From IMG/VR virus record IMGVR_UViG_2713896832_000003: 20,937 nucleotides of DNA. The stretch is one strand, 5' to 3'. This DNA comes from a virus. Lineage: Duplodnaviria; Heunggongvirae; Uroviricota; Caudoviricetes. The position numbers were made by a program, and so were the translations under genes. This document shows, one piece after another, positions 16,290-16,742 of the stretch. Numbering within the stretch: the stretch's first letter is position 1; every line of letters starts with the position of its first letter. The notes below the pieces were generated by a model. The model was not told the origin of the DNA. It searched no databases and saw only the letters and a list, made by a program, of their open reading frames with translations.

Positions 16290-16294
16290 CAAGG

Positions 16295-16322
16295 TTGATT
16301 TTTCCGGAATCTGTGGTAAATT
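16295..16322 (+). promoter_or_regulatory. PR'-like late promoter candidate (-35 TTGATT, 16-bp spacer, -10 TAAATT)
   Basis: Hexamers 5 nt downstream of the Q stop at lambda-like position; the Q-utilisation site would overlap. Confidence 0.4.
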
Positions 16323-16371
16323 CGTCATAACGATGGGCGTTTTATGCCTGACGTTAGAAGAGTTTCTACAA

Positions 16372-16393
16372 CCCGCCGCCGAGCGGGTTTTTT
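16372..16393 (+). terminator. tR'-like rho-independent terminator
   Basis: CCCGC-CGCCGA-GCGGG hairpin followed by TTTTTT, ~70 nt downstream of the candidate promoter. Confidence 0.55.
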
Positions 16394-16432
16394 ATTGCGG
16401 AATTAATTATGGACCGTTATTATTCTGCTCCC

Positions 16433-16508
16433 GGCCCTTTAGCTCAGTGGTGAGAGCGAGCGACTCATAATCGACAGGTCGCTGGGTCAAATCCAGCAAG
16501 GGCCACCA
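16433..16508 (+). tRNA. tRNA, anticodon CAU, Ile2 (ileX-like)
   Basis: 76 nt; 7-bp acceptor stem GGCCCTT/AAGGGCC, 4-bp D stem, anticodon loop CTCATAA, discriminator A and encoded CCA. Resembles E. coli tRNA-Ile2 as recalled, but has two mismatches in the anticodon stem and G at T-loop position 54. Confidence 0.7.
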
Positions 16509-16509
16509 A

Positions 16510-16586
16510 CCGTCACCAGTTCATCAGGAAAGAGCGTCAACCCTTTAAGTTGAGTGTGCGAGGTTCGAGTCCCCGGTGGCGGTCCA
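16510..16586 (+). tRNA. atypical tRNA-like gene, anticodon loop CCTTTAA (anticodon UUU if functional); possibly a pseudo-tRNA
   Basis: Folds as a cloverleaf with encoded CCA, but has C1-G72, C at position 8, C at position 33 and one T-stem mismatch. Confidence 0.4.
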
Positions 16587-16588
16587 GT

Positions 16589-16664
16589 GCCGACTTCGCT
16601 CAGTAGGTAGAGCAACTGACTTGTAATCAGTAGGTCACCAGTTCGATTCCGGTAGTCGGCACCA
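16589..16664 (+). tRNA. tRNA-Thr (anticodon UGU)
   Basis: 76 nt; acceptor GCCGACT/AGTCGGC, perfect D and anticodon stems, loop CTTGTAA, T loop TTCGATT, discriminator A, CCA encoded. Confidence 0.8.
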
Positions 16665-16667
16665 TAT

Positions 16668-16742
16668 GCGGGCATCGCATAATGGCTATTACCTCAGCCT
16701 TCCAAGCTGATGATGCGGGTTCGATTCCCGCTGCCCGCTCCA
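16668..16742 (+). tRNA. tRNA-Gly (anticodon UCC), glyT-like
   Basis: 75 nt; acceptor GCGGGCA/TGCCCGC, anticodon stem TCAGC/GCTGA with loop CTTCCAA, perfect T stem GCGGG/CCCGC, CCA encoded; weak D stem as in E. coli glyT. Confidence 0.8.

Follow-up and report, generated by a model that had tools for sequence, protein, structure and literature searches.

A late-operon control region and a decaying leader tRNA cassette, probably with a relic of an Arg(UCU) gene, in a lambda-like remnant prophage

We analyzed a 20,937-nucleotide stretch of viral DNA (IMG/VR record IMGVR_UViG_2713896832_000003), hereafter the window. Positions 16290–16742 are likely to comprise the control region of the late operon of a lambda-like prophage together with its leader tRNA cassette, in which the second of four tRNA genes, gene 2, would be a non-functional or barely functional relic of the Arg(UCU) slot. 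The lambdoid late-leader tRNA cassette is a known kind of element, here caught in decay; we know of no description of this cassette's composition. The A51.C63 mismatch of gene 2, its origin in the Arg(UCU)/argN slot, the commonness of its C33 and the damage to all four genes were absent from the original prediction made for this region.

Upstream of the cassette, on the + strand, lies a gene for a Q-type late antiterminator of 273 amino acids (15468–16289), which matches Pfam PF03589 (Antiterm) at 183.7 bits and is named 'antitermination protein' in RefSeq. It is followed on the same strand by a PR'-like late promoter (16295–16334), with a -35 element TTGATT at 16295–16300, a 16-nt spacer and a TGn motif with the -10 element TAAATT at 16317–16322. 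In pairwise alignment, lambda PR' and the window promoter share GGTAAATT, 7 nt, ACGATGGG in register, a stretch that corresponds to the -10 region and a -10-like AACGAT at 16329–16334. A strict consensus promoter scan did not pass this promoter (16295–16322), which is too weak for it. In lambda, the -10-like element induces a sigma-dependent pause at which Q loads. By analogy, transcription in the window would start at A16329, and polymerase would pause at AACGAT (16329–16334), which occupies the position of the lambda pause-inducing element.

Further downstream, a terminator scan and alignment with lambda place a tR'-like intrinsic terminator at 16370–16396 (+ strand), comprising a hairpin at 16370–16389 with a 7-bp stem and a 6-nt loop and a subsequent T run; its counterpart in the alignment is the end of lambda 6S RNA/tR'. 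The components of a lambda-type Q/PR' unit thus appear to be present, namely a Q protein, a promoter with a proximal -10-like pause element and a downstream terminator, and the predicted order of Q, PR'-like promoter and tR'-like terminator is borne out by the Pfam match, the promoter alignment and the terminator scan. Compared with the lambda PR'-qut-tR' unit, the window has the -10 region and the pause-type element in the same register and an intrinsic terminator downstream, but its terminated leader is ~68 nt long against ~194 nt for lambda 6S RNA, its promoter spacer is 16 nt rather than 17, and its Q is a PF03589 protein of 273 amino acids. An Rfam search of 16290–16396 also matched the Trp operon leader below threshold (25.5 bits, where 41 are required), which is probably due to the terminator hairpin alone.

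ARAGORN finds four + strand tRNA genes after the terminator, with the anticodons CAT, TTT, TGT and TCC in that order. They are separated by spacers of 1, 2 and 3 nt, matching the tight packing that had been noticed from the sequence, and CCA is encoded in all four. The first is a tRNA-Ile2-like gene (CAU; 16433–16508), a homologue of ileZ that PGAP annotates as tRNA-Ile. Gene 2 (16510–16586) has the anticodon UUU and is called 'tRNA-Lys' by ARAGORN; we list it as a degenerate tRNA of the Arg(UCU)/argN slot. The third is a tRNA-Thr(UGU) gene (16589–16664), a copy of host thrU with the change A9C, and the fourth a tRNA-Gly(UCC) gene (16668–16742), a copy of host glyT with the change U11C. Scoring with the Rfam tRNA model (RF00005; cut-off 29 bits) gave 60.9, 69.8 and 56.8 bits for the Ile2-like, Thr and Gly genes and only 31.3 bits for gene 2. 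PGAP, the NCBI RefSeq annotation, calls Ile, Thr and Gly in the cassette and leaves gene 2 unannotated. The cassette occupies the late strand beyond Q, PR' and tR'; immediately after it, intact relatives carry holin, lysozyme and Rz. In related arrays its usual and standard form is Ile2(CAU)-Arg(UCU)-Thr(UGU)-Gly(UCC).

Gene 2 reads CCGTCAC CA GTTC ATCAGGAAA GAGC G TCAAC CCTTTAA GTTGA GTGTG CGAGG TTCGAGT CCCCG GTGGCGG T CCA. The C1-G72 pair (acceptor stem CCGTCAC/GTGGCGG), C8, C33 and UUU anticodon attributed to it can all be read directly from these letters. The anticodon stem is TCAAC/GTTGA and the 7-nt loop is CCTTTAA, the T stem (CGAGG/CCCCG) contains an A51.C63 mismatch, and there are U4.G69 and U11.G24 pairs. 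Aligned to the Rfam model, the window allele forms 20 of 21 pairs of a cloverleaf with stems of 7, 4, 5 and 5 bp; it keeps GG in the D loop and TTC in the T loop, and the UUU anticodon is part of U36-A37-A38. The non-canonical position 33, for which a misreading of the loop had been considered, stands: C occupies the U33 column of the RF00005 alignment, as it does in all alleles with the loop CCUUUAA. At position 8 the window allele has C in place of U, which the major allele retains. Minimum free energy folding yields a rod rather than a cloverleaf for both the window and PhiR47_1 alleles, and it does likewise for the bona fide argN and ileZ genes.

The score of gene 2 was obtained in a search of the gene alone (85 nt; E = 1.8e-5). 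The gene went unreported in Rfam searches of the whole window and of a 511-nt segment because speed filters dropped it; ARAGORN calls it and PGAP does not. Its discriminator, U73, departs from the A73 of E. coli-type tRNA-Lys(UUU). A megablast search with gene 2 matched only 798 of 5,426 E. coli genomes, and chromosomal Lys tRNA genes are presumably present in every E. coli genome, so gene 2 has no match to those genes; its relatives are Arg genes.

The origin of gene 2 becomes clear from a comparison that covered some hundreds of related loci. Viral contigs in IMG/VR were scanned with the 3' end of the Ile2 gene (ileZ) as an anchor. In the 112 arrays recovered, the slot after Ile2 always holds one scaffold (C1-G72, CCGCCAY...) with varying anticodon arms: 62 carry Arg(UCG), the argN of Stx phages, 17 carry the UUU form, and in 31 the slot is not callable as a tRNA, the anticodon arm having been replaced or deleted. 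Arrays that lack slot 2 were also found. A scan for U33 loops on the anticodon stem UCAAC/GUUGA, which gene 2 has in common with Arg(UCU) alleles, returned many canonical tRNA-Arg(UCU) genes. The array Ile2-Arg(UCU)-Thr-Gly occurs in 60 of the 89 loci on this scaffold, with spacers and neighbours that match those of the window, which argues that gene 2, sharing its scaffold with the Arg(UCU) gene and Stx-phage argN, belongs to the Arg(UCU)/argN slot of the cassette as one of its alleles and is not a new kind of tRNA.

Over 40 distinct alleles, 97.5% of the cells of the scaffold cloverleaf are paired, and double compensatory changes are seen at 7-66, 27-43, 30-40 and 4-69. The sole systematic break is at 51-63, in the C33 alleles. 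Since C1-G72 runs through this 40-allele family, it is a normal feature of the argN/Arg scaffold and not the oddity it had been taken for.

Comparison of the alleles suggests how the window form could have arisen. The change C35U would have turned the Arg loop CUUCUAA (UCU) into CUUUUAA (UUU); U33C would then have given CCUUUAA, together with the 51-63 mismatch, in what is now the common C33 allele; and the window allele would have gained U8C, C4U and C11U. The canonical Lys(UUU) form survives but is rare: contig L010 carries an allele, present in 13 E. coli genomes, whose loop is CUUUUAU, whose stems are perfect and whose D loop does not differ from that of the window allele. An exact-pattern scan for the canonical Lys loop otherwise hit mostly unrelated coding DNA, L010 being the only homologue. 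As a side observation, L010 also has four tandem copies of the sRNA STnc100 (76.6–131.9 bits; 2265–3380, minus strand) just downstream of its two tRNA genes.

The 51-63 mismatch may be a recombination chimera, because both A51-U63 and G51-C63 alleles exist. Alleles with C63U, in which the 51-63 pair is restored, might be taken as compensated, and we rejected this reading: C63U occurs together with G73, in a combination that agrees with the 3' half of Arg(UCU) alleles, which points to recombination. Elsewhere in the data set, three IMG/VR loci beginning ACCGCCATTAGCTCATCGGGATAGAACGCCAGCCTTCTAAGCAATCGG are chimeras of an argN 5' half and an argO 3' half, whose acceptor stem cannot pair, and ~29 further loci have a slot 2 of 80–81 nt with unrelated sequence in place of the anticodon arm and with GGGGGCGGGTCCCC as T loop. 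Recombination among cassette tRNAs appears to be frequent.

The Rfam scores of slot 2 fall in a graded manner, from 56.4 and 53.7 bits for Arg(UCU) alleles, 53.6 bits for argN and 53.2 bits for the canonical Lys allele of L010, through 40.4 bits for the C33 allele of phage PhiR47_1, to 31.3 bits for the window allele. Beyond the window allele are one with a 1-nt deletion in the D stem, found in PPompW prophages of EHEC, and further forms with deleted or replaced anticodon arms. We read this series as decay, which favours the first half of the original suggestion that gene 2 is a decaying pseudo-tRNA or a suppressor-like variant. The C8 of the window allele, carried by about a fifth of the related loci sampled, is an extra change on top of C33. 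PGAP annotates the major C33 allele (U8, C4, C11) as tRNA-Lys and leaves the window allele, found in 171 E. coli genomes at ≥99% identity, and the deletion allele unannotated. In a scan of genome contigs, the C33 allele was confined to representatives of E. coli and Shigella flexneri.

Several observations run against the reading of gene 2 as a relic. The C33 family is present in 798 of 5,426 complete E. coli genomes (~15%), which far exceeds the 28 and 16 genomes with canonical Arg(UCU) alleles and the 13 with the canonical Lys allele, and inducible phages also carry it; such frequency and such carriers are unexpected for a dead gene unless it is hitch-hiking. The cloverleaf of gene 2 is otherwise whole, with its 20 of 21 pairs, GG, TTC, U36-A37-A38 and encoded CCA. 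In a test for relaxed constraint, segregating sites were no denser in gene 2 (15 of 60, counting the positions that the search pattern leaves free) than in Ile2 (18 of 76) or Thr (16 of 76), in a sample that was conditioned on a 17-nt anticodon arm and dominated by singletons. With U33 substituted, tRNAs work less well in vitro but do not lose all function, and C33 is the natural base in vertebrate initiator tRNA. A relic of the Arg(UCU) slot would nevertheless persist because it lies 1–2 nt from useful neighbours.

The state of the surrounding prophage bears on that of the whole cassette. In E. coli 042-type strains, a chromosomal prophage is 100% identical to the window. Downstream of the cassette is a deletion scar (17035..19197, + strand), in which the first ~43 codons of a P21-type holin are fused in frame to the C-terminal part of the tail-tip protein J; Pfam finds Phage_holin_2_1 at amino acids 5–43 of this open reading frame, followed by J domains, and PGAP treats the holin and J parts as partial pseudogenes with a junction at ~17161–17163. 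This fusion means that the lysis, head and most tail genes are gone. The junction is common to four of the 17 IMG/VR loci with an identical gene 2 allele, and 127 E. coli genomes contain most of the stretch 16290–16800.

All four tRNA genes of the window are damaged relative to phages that are intact. In the inducible phage PhiR47_1 and an intact prophage of strain Ecol_244, the Thr and Gly genes are 100% identical to chromosomal thrU and glyT, and tyrU and the chromosomal spacers between thrU and glyT are missing from these phage copies. Compared with the same chromosomal isoacceptors, the window Thr gene has a single difference (A9C) and the Gly gene likewise (U11C, which breaks the 11-24 pair). 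The Ile2-like gene does have the weakened anticodon stem and G54 that had been predicted: its derived changes C42A, which breaks the 28-42 pair to leave a second anticodon-stem mismatch (G28.A42), and U54G are both missing from relatives. Gene 2 has the derived changes C4U, U8C and C11U. Every window gene scores 4–12 bits below its PhiR47_1 counterpart in Rfam, with relatives at 72.5 bits for Ile2 and 64.9 bits for Gly against 60.9 and 56.8 bits in the window. With the lysis, head and most tail genes lost from the prophage, the whole window cassette is plausibly under relaxed selection. Among other IMG/VR loci, including L315, L244 and L139, the glyT-derived gene shows C6-G67 changed to U6-A67 in 10 of 69 haplotypes (window columns 16673 and 16733). 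Being doubly compensatory, the change argues that selection for structure continues to act on this gene in the phages concerned.

From lambda and Stx-phage biology, the following role may be proposed for the cassette in an intact phage. Q would load on RNA polymerase paused just past PR', the modified polymerase would pass tR', the four cloverleaves would be transcribed as the 5' part of the late transcript, and the tRNAs would be freed by RNase P and 3' trimming. They would then supplement the decoding of A-ending codons, which the phage uses 2–8 times as much as host housekeeping genes. Relative to 38 such host genes, PhiR47_1 is enriched 7.9-fold in AGA, 3.2-fold in ACA, 3.0-fold in ATA, 1.9-fold in GGA and 1.25-fold in AAA. 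Classical codon supplementation would account for Ile2, Thr, Gly and the ancestral Arg(UCU) but not for the UUU tRNA: with AAA at only 1.25-fold, there would be little demand for a Lys(UUU) tRNA, and the strongest demand would have been served by the lost Arg(UCU).

A different role is conceivable for gene 2, as a working tRNA-Lys(UUU) on an Arg-type scaffold that replaces host tRNA-Lys cut by PARIS AriB, PrrC or P2 OLD, C33 and the altered anticodon stem being adaptations that block cleavage. We regard this as unlikely, and as a shade less likely still the fuller claim that the C33/UUU allele, on its Arg-derived scaffold, decodes Lys codons and is retained by lambdoid phages for nuclease escape, the window copy being a decayed example of it. 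These assessments apply to the allele family, and that for the window copy itself is lower. The loop of gene 2 differs from that of host tRNA-Lys, which we take to be CUUUUAA, only at position 33; the C33 allele is frequent and adjoins a Thr(UGU) gene, and its major form is called tRNA-Lys by PGAP. Like the nuclease-resistant phage tRNAs, such as T5 tRNA-Lys against PARIS AriB and phage tRNA-Thr against P2 OLD, the cassette places UUU and UGU anticodons side by side. Gene 2 reads U36AAGUU41, without the AriB site (PMC12409363), and retains 36-UAA-38, which one report gives as strictly required for t6A37 (PMC13276492). P2 OLD blocks lambda by cutting tRNAs with paired CNG motifs at 28–30 and 40–42, above all thrU (PMC12445682), and gene 2 has CAA/UUG at these sites where argN has CAG/CUG.

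The match carries little weight, however, as any non-host scaffold would be without host-specific motifs. The adjacent Thr gene in intact relatives has the sequence of host thrU and is therefore cleavable, unlike the phage tRNA-Thr that resists OLD, and we rejected the Thr and Gly genes as nuclease-resistant copies since they are identical to host genes. Gene 2 lacks U33 and one T-stem pair; C33, A51.C63 and U73 are all unlike an efficient Lys elongator tRNA, and both allele-defining changes strike conserved features. The allele also goes on gathering damage (C8, the D-stem deletion and the arm deletions), and the window copy has C8 and sits in a dead late operon.

It is more improbable still that gene 2 serves as a non-decoding, tRNA-like processing module, whose RNase P and 3'-end signals free its packed neighbours. 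The spacers beside it are only 1–2 nt, and conservation among the decayed alleles is highest in the acceptor and T arms, but each downstream tRNA is recognized by RNase P on its own, and slot 2 is grossly broken or arm-less in 31 of 112 arrays and missing from others. Finally, a suppressor or recoding tRNA, in which C33 would shift the register so that U35-U36-A37 reads the stop codon UAA, is the least credible option by far and has no support: apart from the non-canonical loop nothing favours it, the UUU anticodon in its normal register pairs with the Lys codons AAA and AAG and not with a stop, the 7-nt loop and 5-bp stem offer no alternative register, and all 58 annotated PhiR47_1 genes, as judged by length and parsing only, are multiples of three that parse as whole codons.

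Between tRNA-Gly and the holin start, inverted repeats and a terminator scan reveal a structured leader of 233 nt (16743–16975, + strand) with three long hairpins and a second intrinsic terminator (16950–16965 and a T run). Its minimum free energy is -83.1 kcal/mol against -56.1 ± 3.8 for shuffled sequences (z = -7.06), and it is 95–100% identical in 74 related loci, with variable sites at 16 of 144 paired and 17 of 89 unpaired positions. No Rfam family matched 16743–16975, and no covariation or double compensatory change was found in it. The segment is a candidate for an undescribed element of the late transcript, either a structured leader or one involved in processing. Upstream in the window, Rfam also finds the sok antisense RNA of a hok/sok-type toxin-antitoxin locus at 12897–13071 (RF01794, 111.7 bits), where there is an open reading frame of 70 amino acids (13009–13221).

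These results call for caution with one set of RefSeq annotations: in several hundred E. coli genomes, the gene entered as 'tRNA-Lys' is of Arg descent and has lost U33 and one pair of its T stem. The cassette is a compact example from nature in which the anticodon shifts (UCG, UCU, UUU) and decay sets in afterwards, and intact phages retain exact copies of host thrU and glyT. If the C33 allele were functional, it would bear on the dispensability of U33 and on tRNA-based evasion of PARIS and OLD by temperate phages. If it were also kept for nuclease escape, it would be a naturally occurring elongator tRNA that does its work with no U33, and temperate lambdoid phages would have their first example of a counter-defence tRNA of this sort.

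Among known systems, the ileZ-argN-argO cluster of Stx phages (933W type) resembles the window cassette in its location between Q/PR'/tR' and the late genes, in its first gene, an ileZ-type Ile2 tRNA, and in the argN scaffold with C1-G72, with ~84% identity over ileZ and argN. It differs in the slot 2 loop, which is CUUCGAA (Arg UCG) in argN and CCUUUAA in the window, and in the later slots: the window has copies of host thrU and glyT in slots 3 and 4 in place of argO, and no stx genes follow. Three tRNAs adjoining stx2a have been described (PMC7946995); a literature search for ileZ, argN and argO together found no paper in the collection searched.

The shift of anticodon recalls the recruitment of tRNA genes in E. 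coli, in which, as Saks et al. reportedly found in 1998, Arg(UCU) can become Thr(UGU) through an anticodon point mutation. Here too, one phage scaffold carries UCG, UCU and UUU anticodons in different phages, but the shifted phage alleles are known from sequence, and the window allele is further damaged. In seven contigs (L139, L157, L173, L177, L204, L244 and L245), the thrU-derived third gene carries G35U (and A26G), so that the anticodon UUU stands within the fully canonical loop CUUUUAA on a Thr scaffold; two of the seven have a canonical Arg(UCU) gene in slot 2. This looks like a second, independent shift to a Lys anticodon in the same cassette.

Also close are the Ile2-Arg(UCU)-Thr-Gly prophages (IMG/VR contigs such as L246, L276 and L315), which have the same four slots, spacers, Ile2, Thr and Gly genes and slot 2 stem UCAAC/GUUGA. 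Their slot 2 holds a canonical CUUCUAA loop and a paired 51-63 and scores 54–56 bits; the discriminator of Arg(UCU) cassettes is G73 or A73 in most alleles and U73 in L276, as in the window. The slot 2 of the window, by contrast, combines C33, UUU, A51.C63, U73 and C8 and scores 31 bits.
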